A stretch of DNA of 64,000 nucleotides from Patescibacteria group bacterium (GTDB lineage: Bacteria; Bacteroidota; Ignavibacteria; Kapaibacteriales; Kapaibacteriaceae): NCBI GenBank assembly GCA_044238605.1, contig JBIICY010000001.1, positions 9,433 through 73,432 of the forward strand. Direction: 5' to 3'. The notes beneath the pieces are model-generated. The model was not told the origin of the DNA. It saw nothing but the letters and a program-made list of their open reading frames with translations, and did not search any database. Both the position numbers and the translations under genes were made by a program. Below are positions 1-44,481 of this stretch, in pieces. Numbering within the stretch: the first letter of the stretch is position 1; each line of letters begins with the position of its first letter.

Positions 1-234
1 TGATACCTGCGTCCATTGCAGCGGTCTGACCAAAGTTTCTGCGGAGCTCTACAACTCGAACTGGCGAGAGAGTTTTGAGAACATTAACCGTGTTATCCGA
101 CGAACCATCATCGACAACGATGATCTCAAAATCATACCCCTCGCGCTTACACACCTCAAGGATCTCTGCATGGAGGGGTGCTACATTGTCTTCTTCGTTC
201 ATTACTGGAACGACGACGCTAATCGATATAGGGC

Positions 235-1473
235 TCATAGTGTACCACCACGATAATACTCTTTATACCACGCCACAAATCTCTGCAATCCTGTGCGCAG
301 ATCTGTCTGTGGACGAAACTTTGTGAGCTCAAACAACTCTTCGCAGTCGGCCCATGTTGTTGCTACATCCCCCGGCTGCATGTCAACATACTCCTTGATC
401 GCTGGCATCCCAAGCTCTTGCTCGAGGATCTCCACGAAATCGAGCAGGCTTACAGGAGCCCCGTTGCCGATGTTATACGTAGGGGCGAGCCGGTGGCTCG
501 CCCGCATGGCGTCATCAGCATGTGCCCGCATGGCGTCATCAGCATGTGCCCGCATGGCATCATCATCATGTGCCCGCATGGCGTCATCAGCATGTGCCCG
601 GATGGCATCATCGTCATGTGCCCGGATAGCGTCATCAGCATGCGCCCGGATGGCGTCATCAGCATGCGCCCGGATGGCGTCATCACATGCCCGCGCGGCG
701 CCGTCACATGCCCCGTCACGGGCGAGCCACCGGCTCGCCCTTACCTGATCGTCGTGCGTGTCTACTGCCCCGACAAGGCGCACGATGCTCTCGACGATGT
801 CGTCGATGTACGTGAAGTCGCGGCTTAGGTTGCCATGGTTGTAGATGTTGATGGGCTCTCGGGCAAGGATCTTCTCGGCAAAGGAGAAGTAGGCCATGTC
901 GGGACGTCCCCACGGACCATACACGGTAAAGAAGCGGAGTCCGGTGCACGGGATCTGGTAGAGATGGTTGTAGCAATAGGCCATCAGCTCGTTGCTGCGC
1001 TTGGTTACCGCATACAAACTCACGGGCTGGTCTACTCTGTCGGTTGTGCGAAATGGAACATCCGTATTGGCCCCATACACGCTACTGCTACTAGCATAGA
1101 ACAAGTGACGGGGCTTGTGTCGCCTACAGGCTTCCAGAATATTCAAAAACCCAACGATGTTCGATGAGATGTAGGCATCGGGGTTCTCAATGCTATACCG
1201 CACACCAGCTTGCGCAGCAAGATGACACACCAACTCGGGCTTGTGAGTTTCGAAGATGGATGCGATAAGCCCCTTATCCTCGATATCACCCAGATAGAAC
1301 GTAACAGACGTCCCAAGCTGGGCAAGACGTGCATGCTTTAAGGAGGGGTCGTAGTAGTCGTTGCAGTTATCGATGCCGACAACATTCCAGCCGTCTTCCA
1401 CCAGACGTTTTGCTACGTGATACCCTATGAATCCGGCAATCCCCGTAACGAGAATTGTACGTGTATCGTGCAT
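235..1473 (-). CDS. NAD-dependent nucleotide-sugar epimerase/dehydratase (UDP-glucuronate 4-epimerase-like), carrying an in-frame ~80 aa repeat insertion
   Basis: N-terminus TILVTGIAGFIGYHV (Rossmann GxxGxxG), YASSSSVYG...YAVTK active-site region and C-terminal YNIGNGAPVSLLDFV are typical of WbpP/Cap1J-type epimerases. I trimmed the start to MHDTRTILVTG because the ORF-track N-terminal extension runs into the repeat region. Residues AVDTHDDQVRASRWLARDGACDGAARACDDAIRAHADDAIRAHADD... are encoded by the 24-bp tandem repeat at 482-740. Confidence 0.8.
   Translation of the reverse strand: MHDTRTILVTGIAGFIGYHVAKRLVEDGWNVVGIDNCNDYYDPSLKHARLAQLGTSVTFYLGDIEDKGLIASIFETHKPELVCHLAAQAGVRYSIENPDAYISSNIVGFLNILEACRRHKPRHLFYASSSSVYGANTDVPFRTTDRVDQPVSLYAVTKRSNELMAYCYNHLYQIPCTGLRFFTVYGPWGRPDMAYFSFAEKILAREPINIYNHGNLSRDFTYIDDIVESIVRLVGAVDTHDDQVRASRWLARDGACDGAARACDDAIRAHADDAIRAHADDAIRAHDDDAIRAHADDAMRAHDDDAMRAHADDAMRAHADDAMRASHRLAPTYNIGNGAPVSLLDFVEILEQELGMPAIKEYVDMQPGDVATTWADCEELFELTKFRPQTDLRTGLQRFVAWYKEYYRGGTL
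482..740. repeat. 24-bp tandem repeat (~9 copies, catggcgtcatcagcatgtgcccg-like) bounded by two 21-bp palindromes gggcgagcc(g/a)(g/c)cggctcgccc, lying in-frame inside the epimerase CDS
   Basis: Direct reading of the sequence; the unit length of 24 is 8 codons, so frame is preserved. The same palindrome family appears as a terminator-like hairpin at 33633-33653. Confidence 0.85.
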
Positions 1474-1515
1474 AGATATTCCCCCGTGGCAAAGATAACA
1501 GGGGCACCAATACAG

Positions 1516-1872
1516 GGGCACGATATATCGTGCCCGCAGGGTACACATGGGTACGGGGGTACGCGTAGGGGCGACCCAGCGTGGTCGCCCAATGAAGCGT
1601 AGGGGCGACCCAGCGTGGTCGCCCAATGTCGCCCAATGAAATGGTGGGGAAACAATGTCGCCCTCGCGGTAGCGAGGGCATATGCATCATGCGCGAGCTT
1701 CCTCGGCACTACGTGCCTCGGAATGACGCACGCCTTCGCTTTTTTCAATAGGCGCAAGCGCGCCTGCGGCGCGCTTGCGCCACAACACCAACCTAATGCA
1801 TGCCGCGTCATTCCGAGCGCAGCGAGGAACCCAATGCACGCTGCGTCATTCCGAGCGCAGCGAGGAACCTCG
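1516..1872. repeat. Composite palindromic repeat scaffold: a gggcacgatatatcgtgccc palindrome, then A hairpins (cgtaggggcgacccagcgtggtcgcccaatgaa x2), a B element (~100 bp, contains ccctcgcg.tagcgaggg and ggcactacgtgcc hairpins), a C hairpin (ggcgcaagcgcgcc tgc ggcgcgcttgcgcc, 14-bp perfect stem) and D 39-bp tandem repeats (cgtcattccgagcgcagcgaggaacc...) x2
   Basis: Inverted repeats are visible directly. The same A-B-(C)-D architecture recurs at 2658-2978, 3774-4276, 5057-5565, 10588-10793 and 11578-11895. Confidence 0.85.
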
Positions 1873-2160
1873 CTACTCAACTACGTCCGTGTTTACCCAA
1901 GAAAGTAGTTCAGCATTCGAGAGCGCTGCGATGCGTGCCATTAGGCTAAGGGGTGGGTCAGCGCAGAAGTGGATGAGATCATCGAGTTCTTCTTCCGTAA
2001 TGCCCACAAGCTTCGCAAACTCGGGTTGTGAAATCTTGCGCTCTTCCATGATCTGACAGAGGCGTCGAGAGAGGGAGAATTGCCAACGATGATATGTGCG
2101 AGTTTCAGCAGGAATGTGCTCAACCTTTTCCTTGATGTTCAGCATATCTATGCCCTCCAC
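1873..2160 (-). CDS. XRE-family helix-turn-helix protein, putative HigA-like antitoxin
   Basis: RRLCQIMEERKISQPEFAKLVGITEEELDDLIH is a classic HTH_3 motif. It is 93-95 aa, overlaps the upstream partner gene by 13 nt, and has paralogs at 4277-4558 and 10794-11066. Confidence 0.6.
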   Translation of the reverse strand: MEGIDMLNIKEKVEHIPAETRTYHRWQFSLSRRLCQIMEERKISQPEFAKLVGITEEELDDLIHFCADPPLSLMARIAALSNAELLSWVNTDVVE

Positions 2161-2657
2161 AATGAAAGATCAAAAGAATCATGGTAACGGGCCATTAACT
2201 CCGAACCTACAATCATAATCTCACCGGTATCGATTCTAGAGTTGAGAACATGAGTTATACGTCCAAGAAACCCTGCTTCGTTATTTGCATCGCTGTTTGC
2301 CTGGATTGCCTCGTTTTTCGACTTGACGAAACCAGATCCAATCAGCAGTATCCTATTGCTAGTGCCCGCGTACGAACATAGCAATCTACTGGGATTGTAA
2401 CGAGTACGCACACGTTCCTTGTGGTTGTACATAGCAAACACACCTAACTCTGGTCTTTCGGGCCGCAGATATGCTTGCCGGATAACCGATTCCTGTGATA
2501 ACCATTCCAGGAAATCCATTAAGGCATCCGCATTGTTGGCGTCTGACTGATAGAGCTGCTCCATGAACTTATCCGCAAGACAAATGCCGTTGCGCTCAAT
2601 GGCATAGAACGAACAGCTTCCCTCCAACCATGGAATGGTTCGAATTGACTCCGGCAT
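2148..2657 (-). CDS. Gp49/DUF891-type RelE/HigB-like toxin homolog with N- and C-terminal extensions
   Basis: The core LRPERPELGVFAMYNHKE...RLLCSYAGTSNRILLIGSGFVKSKNEAIQ fits the Gp49-family pattern (LKELR...R.LY....R.IVLLHGFiKK.qk.p..EI). It lies upstream of the HTH partner, as in HigB-HigA modules. Paralogs are at 4562-5056 and 11083-11577. Confidence 0.5.
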   Translation of the reverse strand: MPESIRTIPWLEGSCSFYAIERNGICLADKFMEQLYQSDANNADALMDFLEWLSQESVIRQAYLRPERPELGVFAMYNHKERVRTRYNPSRLLCSYAGTSNRILLIGSGFVKSKNEAIQANSDANNEAGFLGRITHVLNSRIDTGEIMIVGSELMARYHDSFDLSLWRA

Positions 2658-2978
2658 AGAGAACCCCGCAATGCGTGTTTTGATGCGCGAAGGAGGTTAG
2701 CCCCCTTCTGGTTCTCTGTGCCGTGAATGCCTGTGAACGTGACATGCGTATGGACGACCCAGCGTGGTCGCCCAATAAAATGATGGCGTAACAACGTCAC
2801 CCTCGCGAACGAGGGTCATATGCACCATCCGCGAGCTTCCTCGGCACTACCTGCCTCGGAATGACGCACGCCGCGTCATTCCGAGCGAAGCGAGGAACCT
2901 CGCTGTTCTTGATGTCACGTTTTGAGATCCTGACGGCACGTAGGGGTGTGAAAGCTCATTTTCCGGCAGGAGTTTAAT
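2658..2978. repeat. Composite repeat: conserved ~95-bp spacer upstream of the Gp49-like gene, then an A-like hairpin, a B element, one D unit and a conserved 40-bp leader (atgtcacgttttgagatcctgacggcacgtaggggtg) that abuts the KilA-N start
   Basis: Near-identical to 5057-5565 and 11578-11700. The leader is shared with the region upstream of the zeta-like gene (5527-5565). Confidence 0.8.
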
Positions 2979-3773
2979 ATGTCCAAGCGAATTGAAGTCC
3001 TCAACGTAGGTATTCGAGTTACACCCATTGGAGACAAAGAATACATCTGCTTGACGGACATCGGCAGATATCGAAATCCTGCAGCAAGCGATGATCTAAT
3101 ACGTAACTGGATTCGTAATAGGAACACACTGGAGTTTCTTGGGCTGTGGGAGTTGATCTACAACCCAGAGTTTAAATCCGTCGAATTCGACGGGATTAAA
3201 ATGCAGGCGGGCTTAAACAGTTTTTCACTAACCCCAAAGCAATGGATTGATCAGACATCAGCTATTGGAATTCAGTCAAGAGCTGGACGATATGGCGGAA
3301 CGTATGCGCATCCAGACATAGCGTTCGAGTTTGCAGCATGGATCTCCGTAGAGTTCAAGCTCTACCTCATCAAAGAATTTCAACGTCTCAAAGAGTCGGA
3401 ACGACGCGAAACGGACTGGGATATACGTCGGAACTTAGCCAAAATCAATTACCGCATTCACACCGATGCAATTCAACATAATCTTCTACCTGTCCAGTTA
3501 ACTGCAAGTAGTTCGGGTCGTGTCTTTTCCTCAGAGGCCGACCTTCTAAATCTTGCTCTATTTGGCCGAACTGCATCCGAATGGAGAAGCTCTCACCCCA
3601 ATGAACATGGCAACATACGCGACCATGCAACAGGTGCTCAGCTCGTTTGTTTGTCGAACCTAGAAAACCTTAATGCGTTATTCATTCAGCAGGGCATATC
3701 TCAAACAGAGCGGCTGCAGCGCTTAAATGAAATAGCAATTGCCCAGATGAAGATTCTAACCAGCGACCGGTAA
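2979..3773 (+). CDS. KilA-N domain-containing protein
   Basis: The N-terminal EVLNVGIRVTPIGDKEYICLTDIGRYRN...DLIRNWIRNRNTLEFLGLWELIYNPEFKSVEF matches the KilA-N (APSES-like) domain family common in phage and Bacteroidota accessory DNA. Confidence 0.7.
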   Translation: MSKRIEVLNVGIRVTPIGDKEYICLTDIGRYRNPAASDDLIRNWIRNRNTLEFLGLWELIYNPEFKSVEFDGIKMQAGLNSFSLTPKQWIDQTSAIGIQSRAGRYGGTYAHPDIAFEFAAWISVEFKLYLIKEFQRLKESERRETDWDIRRNLAKINYRIHTDAIQHNLLPVQLTASSSGRVFSSEADLLNLALFGRTASEWRSSHPNEHGNIRDHATGAQLVCLSNLENLNALFIQQGISQTERLQRLNEIAIAQMKILTSDR

Positions 3774-4276
3774 AATCAGCAATCCCGTAGGGGCGACCCT
3801 ACGTGGTCGCCCAATGAAATGGTGTTCGTAGAGCCGACCCTGCGTGGTCGCCCAATGAAATGGTGTTCGTAGAGCCGACCCTACGTGGTCGCCCAATGAA
3901 ATGGTGTTCGTAGAGCCGACCCTGCGTGGTCGCCCAATGAAGTATTGGGGTGTGTGGTCGCCCAATAAAATGATGGCGTAACAACGTCACCCTCGCGAAC
4001 GAGGGGCATATGCACCATCCGCGAGCTTCCTCGGCACTACGTGCCTCGGAATGACGCACGCCTTCGCTTTTTTCAATAGGCGCAAGCGCGCCTGCGGCGC
4101 GCTTGCGCCACCACACCAAACATTGCACGCCGCGTCATTCCGAGCGCAGCGAGGAACCTAAATGCATGCCGCGTCATTCCGAGCAAAGCGAGGAACCTAA
4201 TGCATGCCGCGTCATTCCGAGCGCAGCGAGGAACCCAATGCACGCCGCGTCATTCCGAGCAAAGCGAGGAACTGCG
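3774..4276. repeat. Composite repeat: A-type hairpin units x4 (~41-bp tandem, gtagagccgaccct(a/g)cgtggtcgcccaatgaaatggtgttc), then B, a C hairpin and D 39-bp units x4
   Basis: Direct reading. It shows the same order of elements as 1556-1872. Confidence 0.85.
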
Positions 4277-4558
4277 CTACTCAACTAGGTCCGTGTTTAT
4301 CCAAGAAAGTAGCTCAGCATTCGAGAACGCTGCAATGCGTGCCATTAGGCTAAGGGGCGGGTCGGCGCAGAAGTGGATGAGATCGTCGAGTTCTTGTTCG
4401 GTAATACCCACCAGCTTTGCAAACTCGGGTTGTGAAATCTTGCGCTCTTCCATGATCTGACAGAGGCGTCGAGAGAGGGAGAATTGCCATTCAAAGAACT
4501 TATTCTCTTCTGCTGGCAACTGGCCAACGACATTTACTGCAGAGCTCATAGTGTTCAT
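4277..4558 (-). CDS. XRE-family HTH protein, putative antitoxin (paralog of 1873-2160)
   Basis: About 85% identical to the 1873-2160 product over the HTH core (FEWQFSLSRRLCQIMEERKISQPEFAKLVGITEQELDDLIH). Confidence 0.6.
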   Translation of the reverse strand: MNTMSSAVNVVGQLPAEENKFFEWQFSLSRRLCQIMEERKISQPEFAKLVGITEQELDDLIHFCADPPLSLMARIAAFSNAELLSWINTDLVE

Positions 4559-4561
4559 TCC

Positions 4562-5056
4562 TCAGAAATCAAATGAATCGTTAGATAAAGGCACTAACTC
4601 CGAGCCGATCACGAGTATCTCACCACATTCTATTCGTTGTCCAACCTTTCGCGCAATATCATAAAGAAACTCTGCTTCACGATTAGCTAACCCATTTCTT
4701 TGTATCGGCTGATCCGTTAACTTGATAAAGCCCGACCCCAGAAGGAGCAATCTGTTACTTTGCCCCACATAGCTACACAGCAACCTGCTTCTGTTGTAGG
4801 GCTCTGCTACTAGCTCCTTGTGATTGTACATTGCAAACACACCGAGCTCCGGACGCTCTGGTCGCAGATATACTTGCCTAACGTGTGTTTCGTTGGATAT
4901 CATTTCAAGAAATGCACGGAGTCTCTTTGCAGCAAAGGGATCTTCAACGTCGAGTTCTTCTAGGAACGCATCTGCCAAGCAGACTCCATCACGCTCGATA
5001 GCATAGAACGAACAGCTTCCCTCCAACCATGGAATGATTCGAATTGACTCCGGCAT
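4562..5056 (-). CDS. Gp49/RelE-HigB-like toxin homolog, extended (paralog of 2148-2657)
   Basis: MPESIRIIPWLEGSCSFYAIERDGVCLAD...RLLCSYVGQSNRLLLLGSGFIKLTDQPIQ is a paralog of the 2148-2657 product. It shares the conserved C-terminal RIECGEILVIGSEL...DSF tail. Confidence 0.5.
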   Translation of the reverse strand: MPESIRIIPWLEGSCSFYAIERDGVCLADAFLEELDVEDPFAAKRLRAFLEMISNETHVRQVYLRPERPELGVFAMYNHKELVAEPYNRSRLLCSYVGQSNRLLLLGSGFIKLTDQPIQRNGLANREAEFLYDIARKVGQRIECGEILVIGSELVPLSNDSFDF

Positions 5057-5565
5057 AGAGAACCTCGCACTGCGTGTTTTGATGCGCGAAGGAGGTTAGC
5101 CCCCTTCTGGTTCTCTGTGCCGTGAATTGGTTTGAACGTGACATGCGTAGGGGCGACCCTACATGGTCGCCCTTTGAAATGGTGGGGAAACAACGTCACC
5201 CTCGCGAACGAGGGTCATATGCACCATCCGCGAGCTTCCTCGGCACTACGTGCCTCGGAATGACGCATGCCTTGTCATTCCGAGCGAAGCGAGGAACCCA
5301 ACGCACGCCTCGTCATTCCGAGCGCAGCGAGGAACCCAATGCACGCCACGTCATTCCGAGCGCAGCGAGGAACCTAATTGCATGCCGCGCCATTCCGAGC
5401 GCAGCGAGGAACCTAATTGCACGCCACGTCATTCCGAGCGCAGCGAGGAACCTAATTGCACGCCACGTCATTCCGAGCGCAGCGAGGAACCTAATTGCAC
5501 GCCACGTCATTCCGAGCAAGGCGAGGAACCCATGTCACGTTTTGATATCCTGACGGCACGTAGGG
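5057..5565. repeat. Composite repeat: spacer, A, B, then D 39-bp tandem units x7 and the shared 40-bp leader
   Basis: Seven near-identical 39-bp units (cgtcattccgagcgcagcgaggaacctaattgcacgcca). The leader atgtcacgttttgatatcctgacggcacgtaggggtg immediately precedes the zeta-like start. Confidence 0.85.
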
Positions 5566-6102
5566 GTGATGGATACACCCTACATTATCGTTATCGCCGG
5601 ACCCAACGGAGTTGGGAAGTCAACGTTTGCGAAGTGGTACCTTCGGCAGCGACCTGCTTGCAAAATGATCGTAGATCCCGATGCAATTGCTAAAGAGCTG
5701 AATATCCCTGATGAGGCTCAGCGCAACATTGCTGCAGGACGCATTGCCCTGGAAACGATCGATGCCAACATCCGCAATGGGATATCGTTTGCGATAGAAT
5801 CAACGCTCTCTGGTAAGACGCTGGCTGCAAAACTCGAACAAGCGCACAACGCGGGGTACTCAATCGAGATATGCCTGCTTCAGATTCCCTCTGTAGAGAT
5901 ATCTACCCAGCGCGTTGTTGAGCGTGTAAATGCTGGCGGACACAACATTCCGGCTGACGCACAGCTACGCCGATTTGAAAGATCTTATCGTAATTTTCAC
6001 GACATATACATCGAGGTATGCCATGAGTGGAGTATCTATGACGCAGACACCAACCCTCCAGAACTCAAGAGCACAGGCCGTGGTGGATTCTCTACGCAAT
6101 GA
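5566..6102 (+). CDS. Zeta-toxin-like P-loop kinase / AAA-ATPase (COG4185-like)
   Basis: The Walker A motif YIIVIAGPNGVGKSTF, followed by ...IVDPDAIAKEL... and a length of ~178 aa, is typical of zeta-toxin/UDP-GlcNAc-kinase-like proteins. Confidence 0.65.
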   Translation: MMDTPYIIVIAGPNGVGKSTFAKWYLRQRPACKMIVDPDAIAKELNIPDEAQRNIAAGRIALETIDANIRNGISFAIESTLSGKTLAAKLEQAHNAGYSIEICLLQIPSVEISTQRVVERVNAGGHNIPADAQLRRFERSYRNFHDIYIEVCHEWSIYDADTNPPELKSTGRGGFSTQ

Positions 6103-6337
6103 GTTGTTGTCCGGGCATGAACATCGCGCGTGCATTGCCGCTGCCTTCATCCGCTCAAGCTATGACATTCGCGACCAGTATCGCCGGGCGGGACGGGGGC
6201 TCGTTGTTATGATCGATGGGGTGGTACAGTCTGTCCATCCCGACTCTTCCCTTCTACCAGATCTTTCTTCCCTCGTTCCGATCGTAAAAGAGTTGTTTCC
6301 GTTGCCACCAGACGAAGAACCGCCAGGGTTTGAGTGA
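6023..6337 (+). CDS. Hypothetical small protein; it overlaps the 3' end of the zeta-like gene in another frame and may be spurious, a frameshifted continuation or a partner gene
   Basis: A 105-aa ORF (MSGVSMTQTPTLQNSRAQAVVDSLRNELL...) with no recognisable domain. GC-rich DNA yields long chance ORFs. Confidence 0.2.
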   Translation: MSGVSMTQTPTLQNSRAQAVVDSLRNELLSGHEHRACIAAAFIRSSYDIRDQYRRAGRGLVVMIDGVVQSVHPDSSLLPDLSSLVPIVKELFPLPPDEEPPGFE

Positions 6338-6339
6338 GA

Positions 6340-6440
6340 AACAATGACGAAGTACTAATGACGAAGTACTAATGACGAAGTACGGATGACAAGCGAAATC
6401 GTACTTGGTAATTCGTCGTTAGTACTTCGTCATTCGCGTC
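6340..6440. terminator. Long inverted repeat containing a 14-bp tandem (atgacgaagtacta x3) and its inverted copy; putative bidirectional terminator between convergent genes
   Basis: gacgaagtactaa ... ttagtacttcgtc are reverse complements. The structure sits between the 3' ends of the + strand ORFs and the - strand gene 6442-8388. Confidence 0.5.
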
Positions 6441-6441
6441 T

Positions 6442-8388
6442 CTACTTCCCTATCGCCGCATACGACTTCTGAAGATATTGGTTTATCAGCGGGAGTGTGC
6501 TGCCCAGACTGCGGGCTTTCTCGAGGTTTGTGATTGCTTCGCGGTGCTGGCCGAGAATACTATTTGCAATGCCCAGCGTGATGTATGGTTCTGGCTTGGT
6601 TGGACGTACCTGTATGGCATACTGACTATACGTAACAGCTGTTGCAGGGTTATTGGTCTTGAGAGATTCTACTGCCGCGCCGTAGGCTGCAGAATATATG
6701 CTCTCCGTGTTAGGCGCTCCGTTCTCTTCAAGAAGTCTTGCGTACGAGGCTTTGTAATCGCGCAGGGCGCCGGTGGATTCTCTAAGGTTAGACTTCGTAA
6801 CAGCACGATTGAGCAGAATGCGCGGGTGATTAGGATTGAGTGAGTCGGCCTTGTTGAGGATCATAAGGGACTTTTCCAATTGGCCACGTTCGCCATAGAG
6901 AATGCCAAGCAACTGATAGGTTCGCCATCGAACTACGCCCCGCTGCTCAAGCACCTGCAGGTCCTGGAACGCCCGTGCTTTGTCGCCGAGGAGGTAGTAA
7001 TTCAGTGCACGAGATTCGTAGGCAATCTCCGATGCCGAACCGTGCAGCGCGATGACCTTGCTCCACAATGTTTCTGAGTTCTCCCATACTGCTGCCTGCG
7101 CACGCGTAACAACCAAGCACATGCCGGCGAACCCTATTGCCAAGGCCCATCCAGCAGCTGGGTATCTGTCTTTGATCCATGATGCACCGTAGGCTAGGAG
7201 CAACAAGCTGCCAATGTAGGGCACGTATGTGTAGCGCTCTGCCATGACTACCTGTCCAACAGAAACAAGCTGAAGCACCATGGCAACAAACAAGACAAAG
7301 ATTCCGATGCACAGAACAATCAGCCTCTGTAGGTCTGGGTTACGTCGTGCGGCATACACCGGTCCCACAACCATTCCAAGCGCTAGCACTGGATACCCAT
7401 AATACCAGATTGGCAGAGCCCCTTGCTTGAGAACCGGATATGGATACAATGCCGATAGGTTGTACGGCACAAGCATCTTGAACCAGTACGTCACATAACC
7501 AAAGCCCGCAAACGCAATACGTTGAGTAAAGCTGTAGGGGTCGGCCTTGGTGATGGCCTCTTCCGACTGAAACTTGACGGCTATAAGGCCCATCACAACA
7601 GAGAAGGCCAGCATTGGAAGCTTCTCGAGTACCGCACGTTTATCTATCTGACGTCGCAGGTAGTAGTCAACAACCAACAAAAGAATCGGCAACGGCGTAG
7701 CCATAGCTTTCGACAACACGGATAGTACGAATGCAGCCATGGCGATGGCAAAGTGGAGCATGCTCCTCTCGCGCACATAGCGCACATAGAAGATCAGCGA
7801 CACCAGCAGAAACAATGTGTAGAGCACATCTTTTGGCTCTGAGATCCATGCAACACTCTCGACGTGCATTGGATGGATACCAAACAATAGTGCCGTAAAA
7901 CCGGCCACAAACGTCGCATTTGGTAGAAGCCTGCGCACAAAGACAAACACAAGAAGTGTGTTAATGATGTGCAGAAGAAGATTCGTTAGTGCAAAGCCAG
8001 ATGCATCATCACCGTGCAACTTGTAATCGACTGCCAGAGAGAGCATCGTGATCGGGTGATAGTTCGATGCAACCTGAGTCCCGGTATCAAACATTTGGGA
8101 AATCGATTGACCACTAAGCTCCTTGACAAGGGGCTGCTCGGTTACATACTGGTTGTCGTCCCAGTTTGTGAACTGCTTTGTTGATCGCAGCGCCGGCTGG
8201 AATGCAACAACTACAGTAACAATCAATACAACTGGCCACAGCCATCGCTGCAGCAGACCAGAAGCAGGCACTGGTGGACGCTTGGTAGCGCGTTGATCTG
8301 AGTGATCTGTAGCCTTCTTAGACTTCGATGATTGTCCCATGCAACATGCTAACCCAAAAAATGTAAAACGCACAGTCTGCAGTCGCAA
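6442..8388 (-). CDS. TMTC/PMT-family (GT39-like) membrane glycosyltransferase with C-terminal TPR repeats
   Basis: It has multiple transmembrane segments and an N-terminal loop motif FTNWDDNQYV (the F..WDD..Y motif of PMT/TMTC O-mannosyltransferases). The C-terminal ~250 aa is TPR-like (AIQVRPTKPEPYITLGIANSILGQHREAI...). The true start may be the internal MGQSSK (ending at ~8340). Confidence 0.6.
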   Translation of the reverse strand: MRLQTVRFTFFGLACCMGQSSKSKKATDHSDQRATKRPPVPASGLLQRWLWPVVLIVTVVVAFQPALRSTKQFTNWDDNQYVTEQPLVKELSGQSISQMFDTGTQVASNYHPITMLSLAVDYKLHGDDASGFALTNLLLHIINTLLVFVFVRRLLPNATFVAGFTALLFGIHPMHVESVAWISEPKDVLYTLFLLVSLIFYVRYVRERSMLHFAIAMAAFVLSVLSKAMATPLPILLLVVDYYLRRQIDKRAVLEKLPMLAFSVVMGLIAVKFQSEEAITKADPYSFTQRIAFAGFGYVTYWFKMLVPYNLSALYPYPVLKQGALPIWYYGYPVLALGMVVGPVYAARRNPDLQRLIVLCIGIFVLFVAMVLQLVSVGQVVMAERYTYVPYIGSLLLLAYGASWIKDRYPAAGWALAIGFAGMCLVVTRAQAAVWENSETLWSKVIALHGSASEIAYESRALNYYLLGDKARAFQDLQVLEQRGVVRWRTYQLLGILYGERGQLEKSLMILNKADSLNPNHPRILLNRAVTKSNLRESTGALRDYKASYARLLEENGAPNTESIYSAAYGAAVESLKTNNPATAVTYSQYAIQVRPTKPEPYITLGIANSILGQHREAITNLEKARSLGSTLPLINQYLQKSYAAIGK

Positions 8389-8427
8389 GATAATGCAGTA
8401 CCAACTCGCGACCGCACCAATCAGGCA

Positions 8428-10428
8428 TTACTGATTACATGGACACGTTACATTGAGTTCGGTAGGATTTGTTACAACCGAGCACGTAGCCGTTGAAACC
8501 ACGCATCGGTATGGCCCCTTTTTAGAAAGTCGTGCGGAGTTCAACGTCAGCACTGAAGTAGTACTTCCTGAAACATCAGGACTATTCGAAAGAGCCACAT
8601 ATTCGCTACCATTAAACACTTGCCACTGATACGAAATAGATTCGCTAGGGCTGGAAGTAGCTGTTACAGCCAACTGAACCTGATGACCGCCTGCTACTGA
8701 TGTCTGATGTACAAGATCGCGAACAACCAGATTACATGTGATAGCTGATCCACGCGTTACCCATTGCCAGTTTTGGACGGAATACGTGCTCTGATCGATA
8801 GCATTGGCAACCGTTTGTCCTCCGCCCTCGTCAAAATGCCAAAGCCCCAAAGCATTTGCTGGGAGATCTGCGAGCTCGTATCGTGATTTGGGCGTGAAGT
8901 TGGATGAATGCATCACATTTCGCGTTACGATCACTTCGTCGATTTCGCCATGGAACCGGCGTCCACCGAGCGGCCAATTTCCAATGTACACCTCAGCAGC
9001 TGCTCCCCAGACAAGATTCCAAGCGGCCTGACTTACAAGAGTACCGTTTACATAGACCTTTGCCTGACCATCCCCATACGTACACAGAAGATGCTGCCAC
9101 TGCCCTTGCTGAAGAGTAAAGTTTGCACCCAAAAAGCCCCAAGTTGCCCCGCTATTCAGCGACTGAACAACCCAATTTGCGTTCGGCAGTACCGCTACAT
9201 TCCCGTGGTTACCATCTACAAGAACGGCATAGCCCTGTCGCTGCGCGGCAGGCTTAACCCACATAGCGACGGAAAACGCTGTAGTCTGGGTTCCGAGGTC
9301 GCCCAGGAGAACATATCCCGCATCTGCCGCAGGTATGGTTATCCCACGCACACCTCCTCCTGGATTGGGAGTGCCAGGATTCTTCACGGCTGCCGAATTG
9401 TCTGTAGGCATCCGAAGTCCGCACTCAGCAGTATAAACAGCACATGTCGGATTCGAAACGATACACCGATATGTTCCAACGAGCTCTGGCTTCATTGACG
9501 CAATTGTTAGCACAGATGATGTCACATTCTGATAATCTGTTCCGTTTGCCAGATTAACAAAATATGCCCCCTGCTTTCGCTGCCATTGATAGCTTAGCAC
9601 TCCAGCAGTTGAGACTGCTGTTACTTGAATAGTAGTATTTAGTCCGGTGCTTACAGTCGCGCCAAGTGGTTGCGATTGTATCGTAACCGTAGAGCAAGGT
9701 TCGTTCTCGAGTGTACGACTAATCCATTGCCAGTTCGTGACGGAATTTGACTGATTTGTATACGCATTCGTAGTCGTGGTTCCACTACCTTCATCAAAAT
9801 GCCACAGCCCTAATGTGTTAGCAGGAAGGTCAGATAATTCGTATCGATTTTTTGGAGAAAAGTCCGTTGTTTGCAAAACATTGCGTGTAACGATTACTTC
9901 ATCGATCTCACCGTGAAATCGACGCCCACCCAGCGGCCAGTTGCCGATGTATACCTCTGCTGCTGCTCCCCAGACTAGGCTCCAGTTAGCCTGACTTACA
10001 AGTGTGCCGTTGACGTACACCTTTGCTTTACCACTTCCATACGTGCACAGAAGATGCTGCCATTGTCCTTGCTGTAATGTAAATGTTGCTCCGAGGAAAC
10101 CCCATGTAGCACCAGCATTCAGCGACTGGATAACCCAGTTTGCGTTAGGCAATACAGCGACGTTTCCGTGATTACCATCTACTAGCACAGCATACGTTTG
10201 AAGTTGTGAAGCAGGCTTAACCCACATTGCTACAGAAAACTCTGTTGTCTGGGTTCCAAGATCACCAAGGAGTATATACCCCGCATCTGCGGCTGGTATT
10301 GTTATGCCACGGACGCCCCCGCCTGGATTCGGCGAACCGGGATTATACAAACCCCATGATGTCGTTTGAGTTGATGCCTCGAAAGACGATGCAAAAACAA
10401 TAAGGAGGATGCAAAAGATACTGCGCAT
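8428..10428 (-). CDS. Secreted tandem-repeat protein: signal peptide + 2 x (LamG/concanavalin-like domain + Ig-like domain)
   Basis: Signal peptide MRSIFCILLIVFASSFEAS. There are two ~330-aa internal repeats, ~80% identical at nucleotide level (8900-9300 vs 9850-10250). Each contains a Laminin_G_3-like block (VAMWVKPA...GNWPLGGRRFHGEIDEVIV) followed by an Ig-like block (SYQWQ...GTYRCIVSN). It is Ser/Thr-rich. Confidence 0.6.
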   Translation of the reverse strand: MRSIFCILLIVFASSFEASTQTTSWGLYNPGSPNPGGGVRGITIPAADAGYILLGDLGTQTTEFSVAMWVKPASQLQTYAVLVDGNHGNVAVLPNANWVIQSLNAGATWGFLGATFTLQQGQWQHLLCTYGSGKAKVYVNGTLVSQANWSLVWGAAAEVYIGNWPLGGRRFHGEIDEVIVTRNVLQTTDFSPKNRYELSDLPANTLGLWHFDEGSGTTTTNAYTNQSNSVTNWQWISRTLENEPCSTVTIQSQPLGATVSTGLNTTIQVTAVSTAGVLSYQWQRKQGAYFVNLANGTDYQNVTSSVLTIASMKPELVGTYRCIVSNPTCAVYTAECGLRMPTDNSAAVKNPGTPNPGGGVRGITIPAADAGYVLLGDLGTQTTAFSVAMWVKPAAQRQGYAVLVDGNHGNVAVLPNANWVVQSLNSGATWGFLGANFTLQQGQWQHLLCTYGDGQAKVYVNGTLVSQAAWNLVWGAAAEVYIGNWPLGGRRFHGEIDEVIVTRNVMHSSNFTPKSRYELADLPANALGLWHFDEGGGQTVANAIDQSTYSVQNWQWVTRGSAITCNLVVRDLVHQTSVAGGHQVQLAVTATSSPSESISYQWQVFNGSEYVALSNSPDVSGSTTSVLTLNSARLSKKGPYRCVVSTATCSVVTNPTELNVTCPCNQ

Positions 10429-10587
10429 ACTGGCCCCGTCTCATAATACGCCGAGGAACAAATCCTGCAGAAACTAATGGTGCTTCAAGCCAGCTCCGGC
10501 GCCAGGCTGGGCCGCAAATCTAGAGGGGTACGTAGTATCTAAAAATGTGAAACAAGTAGTATCTGCACAGCGGTCTTAGGGGCAAAA

Positions 10588-10680
10588 GTCATACCCTACA
10601 TTATCGTTATGGCTTGGCCCAACGTAGATGGGAAGTCCACGTATGTGAGGTGGTACCTGCAGAGGCACCTGATGCACGCT
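10588..10680 (+). pseudogene. Degenerate remnant of the zeta-like kinase 5' end (leader plus first ~25 codons), followed by D-type 39-bp repeats (10670-10790)
   Basis: gtcataccctacattatcgttatggcttggcccaacgtagatgggaagtccacgtatgtgaggtggtacct aligns with 5566-5640 (ggatacaccctacattatcgttatcgccggacccaacggagttgggaagtcaacgtttgcgaagtggtacct) but has lost the P-loop. Confidence 0.45.
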
Positions 10681-10793
10681 GCGTCATTCCGAGCGTAGCG
10701 AGGAACCCAATGCACGCCGCGTCATTCCGAGCGTAGCGAGGAACCCAATGCACGCCGCGTCATTCCGAGCGTAGCGAGGGACCTCGCTGTTCG

Positions 10794-11066
10794 CTACTCA
10801 ACTACGTCCGCATCTTTCCAAAAGAGTAACTCGGTGTTCAAACGGGCGGAGATCTGCGCAAGCAGGCTCAGAGATGGATCAGCTCCGGAGTGAAGCAGGG
10901 CATCGAGTTTATCTTCCGAGATTCCAGCCTTTGCAGCAAACTCGTGCAACGTGAGCTGCTGTTCCTCCAAGACTTGAGATATTCTCACTGCAAGCGAAAG
11001 TTGCCAGTCAACAAGGAGGCGTTCTTCAGGAAGCAGCTGGGCCGATAATTGTTCAACGATGTGCAT
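10794..11066 (-). CDS. XRE-family HTH protein, putative antitoxin (divergent paralog)
   Basis: WQLSLAVRISQVLEEQQLTLHEFAAKAGISEDKLDALLH is an HTH. It has the same position and C-terminal motif (ELLFWKDADVVE) as the other two HTH genes. Confidence 0.6.
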   Translation of the reverse strand: MHIVEQLSAQLLPEERLLVDWQLSLAVRISQVLEEQQLTLHEFAAKAGISEDKLDALLHSGADPSLSLLAQISARLNTELLFWKDADVVE

Positions 11067-11082
11067 GTTCTACTCAACATGG

Positions 11083-11577
11083 TTAGAATGTAAATGAATC
11101 GGGATATAACGGCAACAGTTTCGAGCCCACTATGATTATCTCGCCACATTCAATTCTATCGTTGACCTTCTTCGAAACCGATGCAAGATACTGAGCTTCG
11201 TAACTCGCCCTGCCGTTCATCTGAATTGGTTCATTTCTTGTCTTAATAAAACCCGAGCCAACAAGAAGGATTCGTGCACTGTCACCAACATAGGTGCACA
11301 ACAGTCTGCTTGGATTATACTGCTCAGATGGGAACTCCTTGTGATTATACAGAGCAAACACACCAAGGCCTGGAAGCTCTGGACGCAATATCGCCGGCCT
11401 TATTTGTTGCCTCGTGCGAAGTCCCTGGATCATTCTCGATAACCGCAGCGAGTACCCCCTGTCCGTACCTTCCAATATCTCCATAAACTCATCTGCCAGA
11501 CACACTCCATTACGCTCAATCGCATAGAACGAACACCTTCCTTCCAACCATGGAATGATCCGAATCGACTCCGACAT
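11083..11577 (-). CDS. Gp49/RelE-HigB-like toxin homolog, extended (third paralog)
   Basis: I set the start at MSESIRIIPWLEGRCSFYAIERNG (ATG at 11575-11577); the ORF-track N-terminal extension reads through the repeat. Core RLLCTYVGDSARILLVGSGFIKTRNEPIQ; tail RIECGEIIIVGSKLLPLYPDSF. Confidence 0.5.
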   Translation of the reverse strand: MSESIRIIPWLEGRCSFYAIERNGVCLADEFMEILEGTDRGYSLRLSRMIQGLRTRQQIRPAILRPELPGLGVFALYNHKEFPSEQYNPSRLLCTYVGDSARILLVGSGFIKTRNEPIQMNGRASYEAQYLASVSKKVNDRIECGEIIIVGSKLLPLYPDSFTF

Positions 11578-11913
11578 AGAGAACCTCGCACTGCGTGTGT
11601 TGATGCGCGATGAAGGGTAGCCCCCTTCACGTTCTCTGTGTCGTGAATTGGTTTGAACGTGACATGCGTAGGGGCGACACTGCGTGGTCGCCAAACAAAG
11701 TATTGGGGTGTGTGGTCGCCCGATAAAATGGTGGCGTGACAATGTCACCCTCGCGAACGAGGGGCAGATGCACCATCCGCGAGCTTCCTCGGCACTACGT
11801 GCCTCGGAATGACGCACGCCGCGTCATTCCGAGCAAAGCGAGGAACCCAATGCACGCCGCGTCATTCCGAGCAAAGCGAGGAACCTCGCTACTCGCTACT
11901 CGCTACTCGCTGC
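11578..11913. repeat. Composite repeat: conserved spacer, degenerate A, B, D 39-bp units x2, then a 9-mer microsatellite (cgctactcg x4) that overlaps the stop of the DUF2520 gene
   Basis: Direct reading. The 9-mer family recurs at 33728-33752, 34213-34245 and 38795-38830. Confidence 0.8.
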
Positions 11914-12801
11914 TCTCTTAATCACTTCCTTCAGCGCATTCGTCAGATGAATGTACTGCTCGCGCAGGTTTTCGGGCATGGCGTCGAGCTGACGTTGCAC
12001 GGCGTCCATGTCTCCGCGGACGAGTGGACCTGTGAGCGCAAAGGGGGTGCCATCGTGCATGGCTTTGGCGGCGTTGTCCAGCGTGCGCTGCATGATGGGC
12101 ACGAGAAACGTCTCCGCTGGTATGCCAGCCTCATTTGCCAAACCACGCGCTAGATCATACGCCGCATAGGTAAAGTTCGATGCAGCTACTGCAGCTGCAT
12201 GATACCGCCGCTTCGACACTGGATCTGTCTTCGGCAACCGGAACGGGAAGCCCCCTGTGAGCTTGACAAACTCTTCGGTAAGGGGCCACGCATCATCATC
12301 ACACTCCACGCCCCAGCCTATGCCGTTAAGCGCCGATGGGTCTACAGAACCAAATGTCTGGAATGGGTGCGCCGCCGCAATCCTCGCCCCACATGCACGA
12401 AGGGGCTCCAAGATGTCCGTACCGAGCGAGCCGTTCACATGCATCACGAGTGATCCTGCAAGGCGCTCTCCATACTGCTCCGCCAATCGCTGGATAACTG
12501 CCGGAAGAAAGGCGTCTTTGCAGGCGAGGAGGAAGATGGATGACGAGGGACTAGGGACTAGGGACGAGGGACTAGGTACTAGGGACGAGGTACTGGGTAC
12601 TAGAGACGAGGTACCTGATACGACAGCTCTTGTTCCGTGTAGAAACTCTCTCGCAGATAGGGTTTCCACATTCAACGTCATCTGGTCCCCAGTCCCTAGT
12701 CCCTCGTCCCTAGTACCTAGTCCCTCGTACCTAGTACCTAGTACCTTCCCAACCGACTCCCCCACTCTTCCTTTTCCGATAATCGTAACATGCGTTATCA
12801 T
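11896..12801 (-). CDS. Rossmann-fold NAD(P)-binding / DUF2520-type oxidoreductase-like protein, with an in-frame ~70-aa insertion of a palindromic repeat element
   Basis: I set the start at MITHVTIIGKGRVGESVGKV (GxGxxG). The C-terminal PFALTGPLVRGDMDAVQRQLDAMPENLREQYIHL is DUF2520-like. Residues LGTRYEGLGTRDEGLGTGDQ...SGTSSLVPSTSSLVPSPSSLVPSPSS are encoded by the 9-mer-armed element at 12538-12748. The C-terminal AASSE-stop is encoded by the cgctactcg microsatellite. Confidence 0.55.
   Translation of the reverse strand: MITHVTIIGKGRVGESVGKVLGTRYEGLGTRDEGLGTGDQMTLNVETLSAREFLHGTRAVVSGTSSLVPSTSSLVPSPSSLVPSPSSSIFLLACKDAFLPAVIQRLAEQYGERLAGSLVMHVNGSLGTDILEPLRACGARIAAAHPFQTFGSVDPSALNGIGWGVECDDDAWPLTEEFVKLTGGFPFRLPKTDPVSKRRYHAAAVAASNFTYAAYDLARGLANEAGIPAETFLVPIMQRTLDNAAKAMHDGTPFALTGPLVRGDMDAVQRQLDAMPENLREQYIHLTNALKEVIKRAASSE
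12538..12748. repeat. MITE-like palindromic element: arms built from 9-bp units (gggactagg/gacgaggga on one side, inverted cctagtccc/gtacctagt on the other) around a ~75-bp unique core; inserted in-frame inside the DUF2520 CDS
   Basis: The arms at 12541-12612 and 12687-12746 are reverse complements made of 9-mers. Related copies are at 14485-14554, 15255-15392 and 29016-29078. Confidence 0.8.
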
Positions 12802-12809
12802 CACGTTCC

Positions 12810-42375: not shown

Positions 42376-43977
42376 TTACCGGGACTCGCCTATCACAACA
42401 GGACAGGTTCCCCTGATCACCTGGTTCGTATTTGCATCGATACACTCAAAAGCAGCAACATAGATTCCAACGGCAGCATTGGCACGCGTGGCAGTATTGC
42501 GACCATCCCATGCCACCGACCCACGTGTTCCGATAAATTCTCCGTTCAGCAACTCTGCAATGGCAGATCCATCAAGCCCAACCACGAAGAGACGTCCGAA
42601 GGCCTGTTCAAAGGGCTGCGACCATGATAGGATGCACGGAAACCGCGCGGCACCTTCATAGGTTGAAAAGGGGCTAGGATGAGCAGACAAGATCGCTGTT
42701 CCAGCAGAACGGTCCATCGCAAGCGTATTGGGTGCGCCTGGCGTGCTGCCTACATTGGCGGTGGATGTTCCCCAAGCGGCAGACCCGATGTTTCGTGCAT
42801 TCTCCATGCGTTTCTCAAGCGACTTTCCCTTTGTTGTCAACAACAGTGAGTTGTGATGTTTCTTGTCATAGACTGCTACGTCTGCAACGAAGCCCGAAGA
42901 TGTGCGAAGGGTCAGAGAATCGGAGATCGCATGCACATTCAATGAAGGTCTCACCAGAGCCCAGCGTGCTCCTGCACTCATGCGTGCGATTGCTGTGTCG
43001 GAAGCGCATGCAAGGAATGTATGAGGAGCCAAGCGCTGCGGACCTAAGATCCTGCATACCTGACCGCTTCCGTCATCTATCGTCCAGTCGGATAGCTCTA
43101 CGGTATCAGCTGTGCCATTCCATAGCTCAACAAAGTCGCAATCGCCTTCGACCGGCTCTGCGAGGATCTCTGTGATGGTTATCCCTCCTGCCGTAGGCGG
43201 TATCGTAATGGTTGTTACATACTTATTGTTCTCCATTCGCATATCGGTAGTTGTCAGGATCACGCACAGTGTATCTGTTCGCAGAACCTCCGTTGGCGCA
43301 ATATCTCGTAGGTGGACCCGGGCAGACCACCATGCTTTGGCCATAAGGGGCGGACAGTGCCGCTCTGTCGAATAACTACCAACAGTAATCCGCACTAGCT
43401 GTCCTTCAGCACGAGTTCTCCCTGCATTTACGACACCAACATTCAGCACTGAATCGTGAATGAATATCCCGGAAATGCCAACATCATGTTCATACTCTAC
43501 ATGTGAATTGATTCGGCCGCATGTTGCGCTGTCGAAGGCAGCGGATGCTGACCATTGGGAGCCATAGGCGACCACGCCATCATCAATCATGCCATGGCGT
43601 TCAATGCTACGTCCTCGCTCTTCGGCCCGGATACTGTAGGCAACACTATCAGTGATTGAGGAGTCGATTCGACGCAGTTCAACGCGATCAGACGTGTTAT
43701 TCAGCGATGGTAATGCACATTCCACAATGACTACACCCGTGGGCACTGGGCGTGTCTCGCGCAGCGCTTGTTCATCGCGAGTGAGGATTAGGCAGGCCCC
43801 CTTCTCAACCTTTACATTGGGTAGGCGAGCACATGACCTGTTGTCGCAAACCAGCAGAGTGTCAAGGCGTACGGGACCAGCAGTCTGGATGGCACATTCA
43901 ACCCATTCCGGCTCCCCTGCAGCCGGTGTAGGATGAATTTCGGTGATGAGGATCTGGAGAAGTATGAGGTATTCCAT
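42376..43977 (-). CDS. Secreted protein with two lamin-tail-domain (LTD)-like modules
   Basis: ILITEIHPTPAAGEPEWVECAI and ITITEILAEPVEGDCDFVELWNGTADTVELSDWTIDDGSG match the LTD signature (NE...P....D.EFVEL.N......L.GW.L.D). Confidence 0.45.
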   Translation of the reverse strand: MEYLILLQILITEIHPTPAAGEPEWVECAIQTAGPVRLDTLLVCDNRSCARLPNVKVEKGACLILTRDEQALRETRPVPTGVVIVECALPSLNNTSDRVELRRIDSSITDSVAYSIRAEERGRSIERHGMIDDGVVAYGSQWSASAAFDSATCGRINSHVEYEHDVGISGIFIHDSVLNVGVVNAGRTRAEGQLVRITVGSYSTERHCPPLMAKAWWSARVHLRDIAPTEVLRTDTLCVILTTTDMRMENNKYVTTITIPPTAGGITITEILAEPVEGDCDFVELWNGTADTVELSDWTIDDGSGQVCRILGPQRLAPHTFLACASDTAIARMSAGARWALVRPSLNVHAISDSLTLRTSSGFVADVAVYDKKHHNSLLLTTKGKSLEKRMENARNIGSAAWGTSTANVGSTPGAPNTLAMDRSAGTAILSAHPSPFSTYEGAARFPCILSWSQPFEQAFGRLFVVGLDGSAIAELLNGEFIGTRGSVAWDGRNTATRANAAVGIYVAAFECIDANTNQVIRGTCPVVIGESR

Positions 43978-43992
43978 ACTTCTCCGTGCGTT

Positions 43993-44481
43993 CTATGGTG
44001 TGCAACGTGACATCAACAGCTCGACGATGCGTTCCAGATGTAGACGATCGACTTCGTTAAATCTATTCAGCACAGGACTGTCGATATCCATTACGCCGAT
44101 GCAGCCACGTGAGCTGATCATGGGCACAACGATCTCGCTCGCACTTGCAGCGTCACACGCAATGTGTCCTGGAAACTCATGGACATTGCCAACAACAACC
44201 GTTTTCTGCGTGTCTGCTGATGTTCCACAGACACCCCGTCCGAGAGCAATTCGAATACAGGCGGGCTTGCCATGAAATGGTCCAAGTACAAGCTCGCCGT
44301 CGCGCATCAGATAAAATCCAGCCCAGTTAACATCGGGCATCATGTGGTAGAGCACTGATGCAGTATTTGCAAGGTTTGCGATCAGATCAGACTCCCCATC
44401 AGTAACTGCAGTAACAACCGAGGTGATCTCCTGATAGAGCGCATCCGGATGGTCTGCAGTTGAAGATGGAATCTGAAACAT
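43993..44481 (-). CDS. GAF-domain protein, free methionine-(R)-sulfoxide reductase-like
   Basis: NWAGFYL...GPFHGKPACIRIALGRGVCGTSADTQKTVVVGNVHEFPGHIACDAASASEIVVP matches the fRMsr/YebR pattern. Confidence 0.6.
   Translation of the reverse strand: MFQIPSSTADHPDALYQEITSVVTAVTDGESDLIANLANTASVLYHMMPDVNWAGFYLMRDGELVLGPFHGKPACIRIALGRGVCGTSADTQKTVVVGNVHEFPGHIACDAASASEIVVPMISSRGCIGVMDIDSPVLNRFNEVDRLHLERIVELLMSRCTP

Follow-up and report, generated by a model that had tools for sequence, protein, structure and literature searches.

A bipartite element upstream of a Zeta-toxin-type kinase gene in a Kapabacteria-like genome is most likely the native kinase promoter, copied before a KilA-N gene

Results

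Gene and repeat content of the locus

The window, the whole stretch of DNA analysed here, comprises 64,000 nucleotides. Between positions 1500 and 11900 it carries three diverged two-gene modules on the minus strand (68-74% nucleotide identity), each bordered by mosaics of A repeats, D repeats of 38-39 bp and hairpins in plus orientation, together with a KilA-N domain gene and a small Zeta-toxin/AAA_33-type kinase gene on the plus strand (Table 1). The first protein of the modules (about 165 aa) gave no sequence-level family match in Pfam, NCBIfam or PDB profile searches. The best PDB structure matches of its AF2 model (pLDDT 88) were the toxins HigB, YoeB and RelE (probability about 1, E about 5e-3, TM 0.42/0.58), and the second protein matched HTH_26 and HTH_3 just under the Pfam cut-offs. 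We call the modules HigBA-like, the toxin likeness being that of the predicted fold alone.

The kinase gene overlaps a downstream partner gene. Such a gene (called at 84-103 aa) also accompanies the kinase in L013, L014, L020, L022 and L024. In L010 and L011 the kinase is followed by an equivalent ORF. Directly after the kinase operon, at 6334-6446, lies a long inverted repeat of three 14-bp tandem units (AATGACGAAGTACT) and their complement, which may be a bidirectional terminator. A gene for a PMT_2/TPR membrane protein (6442-8388) and one for a secreted LamG/Ig-domain protein (8428-10428, minus strand) are inserted between the operon and a kinase remnant when compared with syntenic genomes; the LamG/Ig gene contains an internal duplication (8752-9386 versus 9715-10349, 74% identity). 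Just downstream of the kinase pair in L014 (11068-11442), and also in L015 and L017-L019, is a 124-aa gene of the Y1-transposase family (PF01797; RAYT- or IS200-like), a candidate for the mobilisation of the palindromic repeats found throughout these intergenic regions.

Two paralogous blocks of the locus, 1564-2899 and 3868-5298, are 74% identical. Within scaffolds S2 and S3, positions 2764-2872 and 3954-4062 are 98% identical over 109 nt, against about 74% for the adjacent paralogous genes, which suggests that the intergenic repeats have undergone gene conversion or moved recently. Repeats also lie within two of the outer genes. The NAD-dependent epimerase gene (235-1473, minus strand) holds 8-9 in-frame tandem repeats of 24 bp at 481-745, bracketed by GGGCGAGCC..GGCTCGCCC palindromes, and its ORF is still open (412 aa versus 330, 372 and 391 aa in L013, L020 and L014). 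The DUF2520 gene (11896-12996, minus strand) contains two opposed 7-bp/21-bp repeat arrays that form a long hairpin at 12534-12746, for which Rfam returned spurious miRNA-like matches only; this ORF is likewise still open (366 aa versus 295 aa in L013).

Table 1. Features of the repeat locus and of the distant motif copy (window coordinates; arrows give the direction of reading)
Feature	Position	Strand	Details
HigBA-like module A	1873..2657	-	169-aa protein of RelE/HigB-type predicted fold, then 95-aa XRE-type HTH protein
Conserved stem, HigB-like 5' region	2658..2721	-	GCACAGAGAACC (box 2 and next 8 nt) base-pairs with GGTTCTCTATGC, whose 3' end is the start codon
Motif copy, HigBA-like module A	2709..2745	-	box 1 2743->2736, box 2 2721->2718
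Scaffold S2	2746..2911	+	A repeat, hairpins, one D repeat; between divergent motif copies
Leader copy A	2912..2948	+	box 1 GTCACGTT 2914-2921, spacer 2922-2935, box 2 GCAC 2936-2939, then GTAGGGGTG
KilA-N 5' region	2949..2978	+	AGGAG 2968-2972, 6 nt before ATG; not common to the kinase copy
KilA-N domain gene	2979..3773	+	264 aa; PF04383
HigBA-like module B	4277-5056	-	paralogue of module A
Motif copy, HigBA-like module B	5108..5144	-	box 1 5142->5135, box 2 5120->5117
Scaffold S4	5145-5531		equivalent of S2
Leader copy B	5532..5568	+	box 1 5534-5541, spacer 5542-5555, box 2 5556-5559, 9 nt, ATG 5569
Zeta-toxin/AAA_33-type small kinase	5569..6102	+	177 aa from ATG
Kinase partner gene, overlapping	6035..6337	+	start ATG 6035 or GTG 6083; without Pfam match
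Decayed leader and kinase pseudogene	10561..10671	+	box 1 lost, ATG changed to AAA, about 95 nt coding, ends in D repeats
HigBA-like module C	10794-11577	-	paralogue of module A
Motif copy, HigBA-like module C	11629..11665	-	box 1 11663->11656, box 2 ACAC 11641->11638
Motif copy outside the repeat locus	43975..44013	-	box 1 44011->44004, box 2 43989->43986

Two leader copies before unrelated genes

The 37-nt sequence ATGTCACGTTTTGA[G/T]ATCCTGACGGCACGTAGGGGTG occurs twice on the plus strand, with G versus T as the single difference between the copies. An exact search with the 37-mer ATGTCACGTTTTGAKATCCTGACGGCACGTAGGGGTG returned 2 matches in the window and 0 in 100 shuffles. Copy A begins 13 nt 3' of the last D-repeat core (2875-2898), and 30 nt separate its end from the KilA-N ATG, while copy B begins 2 nt 3' of the last D core (5506-5529) and abuts the kinase ATG. 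A preliminary description of this DNA had reported the same leader before two unrelated genes, and the domain assignments bear this out (KilA-N, PF04383, E 2e-20; Zeta_toxin/AAA_33 kinase, E 3e-10). Both copies that it listed exist, with a length of 37 rather than 40 nt, and the second lies 5 nt to the right of 5527-5563, where it had been placed. The degenerate third version that it mentioned was also found, though badly decayed (alignment 10528-10700 versus 5505-5665): of the leader only TATC.TG.CAC..TTAGGGG survives, and the coding sequence of the remnant is about 77% identical (blastn).

Six copies of a bipartite core in the window

The first 10 nt of the leader also occur inverted at 2736-2745, 5135-5144 and 11656-11665, beside the three minus-strand modules, sites that the preliminary description had missed. 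These inverted 10-mers proved to be full copies of a bipartite motif, GTCACGTT-N14-GCAC, of which six copies are present in the window (five exact, one carrying a single mismatch), all facing gene starts. The pattern TCACGTT-N11-ACGNCAC alone gave 5 sites in the window against 0.02 expected, two of them facing the KilA-N and kinase genes and three facing HigB-like genes; the sixth core site, at 44011, was found with GTCACGTT-N14-GCAC. This last copy lies 40 kb from the repeat locus, in the last codons of a GAF-domain gene and 8 nt before the ATG (43977) of a gene for a 533-aa lamin-tail-domain protein. Since three copies face the minus-strand modules, each leader has an inverted partner across its scaffold, the two forming divergent copies. 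We rejected a split 18-bp palindromic operator, AACGTGACATGTCACGTT, separated by scaffold insertion, as each half runs into a full gene-oriented copy of the motif.

Conservation at kinase and HigB-like loci

Seven kinase loci, that of the window included, were retrieved by protein identity only (54-86% at the amino acid level); the source names of the homologues include '[Candidatus Kapabacteria bacterium]' and '[Candidatus Kapaibacterium sp.]', an indication of the lineage. At all seven, GTCACGTT and GCAC were exact, the spacer was 14 nt and the ATG stood 9 nt past GCAC. In the 60 nt before the kinase ATG, the invariant positions were the 12 of the boxes and 2 others only. The spacers were 14-93% identical at a constant length of 14 nt, and the 25 nt upstream of box 1 were 8-44% identical, i.e. 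random, and often lacked D repeats. The base before box 1 was not constant (T, with GC, AA and AC also found there). The left-hand neighbour of the kinase, where visible, was not a close co-directional gene. We set aside a hairpin in which GUAGGGGUG would pair with kinase codons 4-6, as it is found in the window clade and is missing in L014, L021, L022 and L024.

The motif was found with the same spacing at diverged HigB-like loci, which were also retrieved by protein. Both boxes were exact in L005 and L025, and read GTCACATT and ACAC in L026/L027, which share one protein (P0006). The HigB-like/XRE-HTH family is rare (8 clusters), and no member was found at kinase loci L011, L013, L020, L021 and L024 in 0.3-10 kb of flanking DNA to either side. 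The motif is therefore unlikely to be an operator for a neighbouring XRE-HTH protein, most motif-bearing kinase loci having no such module nearby.

The preliminary description had proposed that the repeat scaffold supplies the leader to captured ORFs. This does not agree with its occurrence elsewhere: leader or motif was found without D or A repeats, behind different and unrelated upstream DNA, in L009 (KilA-N) and in L013, L010, L011, L021, L022 and L024 (kinase), and in syntenic genomes the leader is the kinase's own upstream region. In L009 the window's epimerase gene is followed by unrelated heptamer repeats and then by leader and KilA-N, a HigBA-like module, A repeats and D repeats all being absent. 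The leader is thus reclassified as an ordinary gene-proximal control element, the neighbouring repeats being the variable part.

The motif before other gene families

When metagenomes were scanned with 21 specified leader bases, five contigs were found, three with leader and kinase and two with leader and KilA-N. L010 carries two kinase copies, the leader of the second differing from the search pattern by one base. The exact core also stands before a 52-aa + PemK pair (a PemK/MazF pair; L013), before a GIY-YIG gene (L022, ATG 8 nt past GCAC) and, in L010, before a gene whose first 23 codons we take to be HicB-like and within which the contig ends. Altogether the exact core was present in about 17 distinct sequences (184 kb and 230 kb of non-viral sequence), always with a 14-nt spacer, and near-matches with 1-2 changes came in addition. 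All exact sites face an ORF start shortly downstream, 9-70 nt away where measured, and the chance expectation for the exact core in the non-viral sequence searched is about 0.03 by our own arithmetic. As the instances outside the kinase and HigB-like families were found by motif search, box conservation in them is circular, while their orientation and position are independent evidence. The core thus faces the start of at least six gene families, in keeping with the expression-signal-like sequence common to unrelated genes that had been proposed. The concern raised with that proposal, that the motif might always be followed by one gene family, applies in part to the full 37-mer, which in the metagenome scan preceded kinase or KilA-N genes only, and not to the 12-nt core, which precedes many families.

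Scanning a genome collection, from which the source species is seemingly absent, with the same 21 bases gave one match, in the Clostridia MAG L001; this lacks GTCACG and GGCAC and was discarded as chance. A scan of viral contigs with ATGTCACGTT-N14-GCAC gave at least 120 matches, which looked random: among the 120 listed, 29 had T at spacer position 10 and none had a spacer starting with TTGA. No sigma gene or sigma/anti-sigma pair with the motif and no cognate factor was found in the 230 kb searched. A literature search for the 8-mer GTCACGTT gave primer sequences only, and searches on Kapabacteria promoters gave nothing relevant by title or abstract.

Comparison with known promoter elements

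No sigma-70 consensus (-35 TTGACA and -10 TATAAT, separated by 16-18 nt) was present in either leader on the plus strand, in a scan of 1400-6500 that gave 6 sites against 4.5 expected. The -7 element TAnnTTTG of the Bacteroidetes/FCB type is absent from the leader, CACGTTTT fitting 4 of the 6 specified positions, and no -33 TTG stands at a consistent distance upstream. TAnnTTTG was about 9-fold enriched upstream of the window's genes (120 nt upstream of 46 ORFs), and TATAAT and TTGACA were absent there, a pattern that suggests that the organism uses Bacteroidetes-type housekeeping promoters. A sigma-54 site was rejected: despite the likeness of TGTCACG to TGGCACG, the GG is interrupted and TTGC is missing at -12. 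To our knowledge the boxes resemble no promoter consensus, the sigma-70, sigma-54, Bacteroidetes TTG/TAnnTTTG and ECF AAC/CGT types included. The predicted fold of the leader was not significant (z +0.55 on the plus strand, -0.17 on the minus strand), and Rfam gave no relevant match (E<=1, positions 1-13000).

Origin of the KilA-N copy

The gene order of L013 is epimerase, kinase and partner, DUF2520 and CysS, and in L020 the epimerase is followed by the kinase pair, with the contig stopping about 300 nt past it. The window has the same outer genes as L013, which makes the kinase and its leader the resident elements; judged by this gene order, the window's lineage has gained the HigBA-like modules, KilA-N and two minus-strand genes. 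The KilA-N family is huge and very widespread at about 70% identity, and the gene is therefore probably a horizontal import; two of the 120 KilA-N matches listed carried taxon names, a Synechococcaceae cyanobacterium and Pseudomonadota. The part of the preliminary reading in which a leader copy stands before a captured gene is thus supported, the horizontal acquisition of KilA-N being probable.

The leaders themselves point to recent copying. The two window leaders differ at 1 of 25 non-box positions, whereas 74% identity predicts about 6.5 differences (binomial P about 0.005, our own calculation), and both carry a derived 5-nt block, GATCC/TATCC, where the other strains and species examined have TCGGT, TCGGC or TCTGT and more distant loci have unrelated spacers. 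From the near-identity and the common derived block we infer that the two sites recently exchanged sequence through copying or gene conversion, probably mediated by the neighbouring repeats, to which the nearly identical stretch of S2 and S3 belongs. In another strain, the regions before KilA-N (L007) and the kinase (L008) are identical for about 100 nt upstream and split exactly after GGGGTG. The simpler syntenic order suggests that the KilA-N copy consists of a duplicated kinase promoter and an imported gene.

The KilA-N 5' region itself varies. In L009 a 49-nt insert (1354-1402) replaces 8 nt of the window sequence right after GCACGTAGGG; it holds a small GGGTTAAAGCCC-type palindrome, so small palindromic elements also land downstream of the motif.

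A conserved stem in the HigB-like 5' region

A stem that takes in box 2 of the inverted motif copies is conserved in the 5' region of the HigB-like genes, not only at module A but also at 5057-5120 and 11578-11641 (minus strand). Its fold is significant (z about -5), and RNAalifold gave 5 pairs with compensatory changes; 92% of stem cells were paired, against 42-55% in slid controls, and the observed covariation was reached by 2 of 500 shuffles. Across the three window sites and L005, L025 and L026 the 5' structure has two levels, a 12-bp outer stem that sequesters the start codon and inner hairpins that keep their position and change in sequence between lineages. This structure could regulate how the toxin is translated or guard against read-through.

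Discussion

On the comparative sequence evidence, the leader is most likely the native promoter of the kinase, copied before a horizontally acquired KilA-N gene. Upstream of the kinase nothing else non-coding is conserved, and where the left-hand neighbour is visible it is not a close co-directional gene, so the element would have to contain the kinase promoter. More specifically, and with a little better than even confidence, we read the 37 nt as the core transcription-initiation region of the kinase operon, a bipartite element served by a dedicated factor and possibly giving a leaderless kinase mRNA, with the KilA-N copy as a duplicate. Its functional part would be GTCACGTT-N14-GCAC, which a dedicated factor of the Kapabacteria-like lineage, at first guess an alternative sigma factor, probably recognises. 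Boxes 1 and 2 would act as -35-like and -10-like elements, box 1 beginning at -35 and the invariant A of GCAC lying at -11. The predicted start, 9-10 nt past GCAC, would then be the A of the kinase ATG, and the kinase mRNA would be leaderless. The 9-nt gap from GCAC to the ATG at all seven kinase loci is consistent with this geometry, and no usable Shine-Dalgarno spacing is available. At the KilA-N gene the promoter would have been duplicated along with the end of the upstream scaffold, the copy ending at -1, and the imported gene would keep its own 30-nt leader with a Shine-Dalgarno sequence. The inverted motif copies would drive the three HigBA-like modules, which would place each scaffold between divergent promoters. 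At other motif-bearing genes 40-70 nt separate GCAC from the start codon, some with a Shine-Dalgarno sequence. What the sequences show directly is the identity of the two copies, the motif with its fixed spacing and its orientation toward genes, its conservation in orthologues, its independence of the scaffold, and the synteny; promoter function, start site, factor and the order of evolutionary events are inferred.

The kind of element, as judged from its sequence and distribution, would be a lineage-specific regulon promoter or operator motif, and the choice between the two bears on the reading just given. In an operator model the boxes would bind a trans-acting repressor or activator over a weak core promoter and so coordinate toxin-antitoxin and accessory genes; a possible example is a tandem-binding regulator reading GTCAC ... 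GGCAC about two helical turns apart. Eight invariant bases are stricter than most promoter elements and would suit a transcription-factor site too, and the extreme invariance of the 8+4 bases, the fixed spacer, the misfit of the boxes to known sigma consensus sequences (by scan and inspection) and the likeness of the gene set to an accessory-gene regulon all speak for such a site. We nevertheless consider it unlikely, because nothing else is conserved upstream of the kinases to act as the promoter proper, and the strict 9-nt gap to the ATG over 54-86% amino acid divergence would not be expected of a pure operator; moreover the site is asymmetric, no regulator gene travels with it, and the rare XRE-HTH/HigB-like family is absent from the five kinase loci named above. 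The conserved HigB-like stem raises a different difficulty. Were it formed on the native mRNA, the start of transcription could lie no further downstream than box 2, which would invalidate the -35/-10 reading. Box 1 (TGTCACGTT) might instead be an extended -10-like element (TG, A at -11, T at -7) with the start in the spacer or in box 2, in which case a 5' UTR of 10-20 nt would make up the 3' half of the leader and box 2 would be an RNA-level or initiation-region element. The stem does take in box 2 and the bases directly after it, and CACGTT contains the A, T and T of the TAnnTT part of the Bacteroidetes -7 box, the TAnnTTTG form of which is enriched here. This geometry seems doubtful all the same, as it leaves the invariance of GCAC in stem-less families and the fixed 9-nt gap of the kinases without a reason, the T before box 1 is not conserved, and no -33 TTG lies at a consistent distance. 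The promoter reading could be reconciled with the stem if the native start fell immediately after the 5' arm; only read-through RNA would then form the stem and be silenced.

Two further explanations are both very improbable in our view. The inverted 10-mers could be terminal inverted repeats of the scaffold, and the leader a site of recombination or attachment, or else one end of a mobile repeat. AACGTGACAT and ATGTCACGTT do flank scaffolds S2 and S4, as well as an unrelated repeat block in L010, strain variation begins exactly at the left edge of the leader, and the Y1-transposase gene lies beside the kinase pair in five loci. The inverted 10-mers are, however, fully accounted for by divergent gene-oriented motif copies, and a sharp conservation edge is the expected look of a promoter's upstream boundary. 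The analogy to a cassette attachment junction in the preliminary description fares no better: the motif is confined to the 5' side of genes, and direct repeats of it never bracket an inserted segment, with no duplicated site when L009 is compared with the window; its single-strand fold is no better than shuffled; and no integrase or recombinase was found among the ORFs scanned (the locus genes and about 20 other window ORFs). The leader might also be a functionless relic, the tail of a segmental duplication that took in the scaffold, in line with the position of the copies at the ends of the paralogous blocks and with the identity over about 100 nt upstream in another strain. Such a relic is hard to square with boxes that are invariant in orthologues with randomised flanks and with the decay of the motif in the pseudogene copy, and the deficit of non-box differences points to recent copying or gene conversion and not to old neutral decay.

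As a promoter, the element invites comparison with several known systems. It shares with the regulons of ECF-type and other alternative sigma factors two short boxes at rigid spacing before several functionally related genes, with little else conserved; it differs in that GTCACGTT and GCAC are unlike the usual AAC / CGT elements and in that no motif-bearing sigma/anti-sigma pair was found. Promoters of leaderless mRNAs are common for toxin-antitoxin genes in some phyla, and the kinase start codon at a fixed 9-10 nt after a -10-like box (8 nt in two other genes) fits this type, whereas the wider gaps and Shine-Dalgarno sequences at other motif-bearing genes do not. The predicted expression of an imported KilA-N gene from a resident promoter, with toxin-antitoxin modules interleaved with repeats, recalls the Pc promoter and cassette array of integrons. 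Integrons, however, have a single Pc at one end, while the motif here stands 5' of each gene in either orientation, apparently copied by repeat-mediated duplication or gene conversion, with no integrase in the scanned ORFs and no attC-like fold. Like the Correia elements of Neisseria and the REP/BIME mosaics of enterobacteria, the repeats that the leaders abut are mosaic, intergenic and variable between strains, but the leader is not part of the repeat, persists without it and has neither element ends nor a target-site duplication. No MITE- or Correia-like unit mobilised in one piece between terminal inverted repeats was seen, the full leader in the metagenome scan standing only before kinase and KilA-N genes. 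The HigB-like copies, and not leaders A and B, resemble the fold-back inhibition of IS10, in that a 12-nt arm upstream of the predicted start pairs with the start-codon region and would silence read-through RNA.

A broader reading, which we regard as speculative and unlikely to hold in full, is that the core is the recognition site of a dedicated sigma or transcription factor that coordinates the toxin-antitoxin and accessory 'mobilome' genes of Kapabacteria, and a portable module that captures incoming genes. Its compactness (37 nt, ending at -1) and its position at the edge of recombination-prone repeats are what would make it portable; repeat-mediated duplication would copy the motif and incoming genes would then be captured, an integron-like outcome without an integrase.

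If the motif is a factor-specific promoter, it would be a regulon signal not described before, from a lineage that is uncultured (Kapabacteria), uniting unrelated toxin-antitoxin and accessory families, and its 12-nt core with fixed spacing would be a simple handle by which regulon and regulator could be located in complete genomes. The KilA-N copy would be a concrete example of a resident promoter that was duplicated and joined, apparently at -1, to a horizontally acquired gene.
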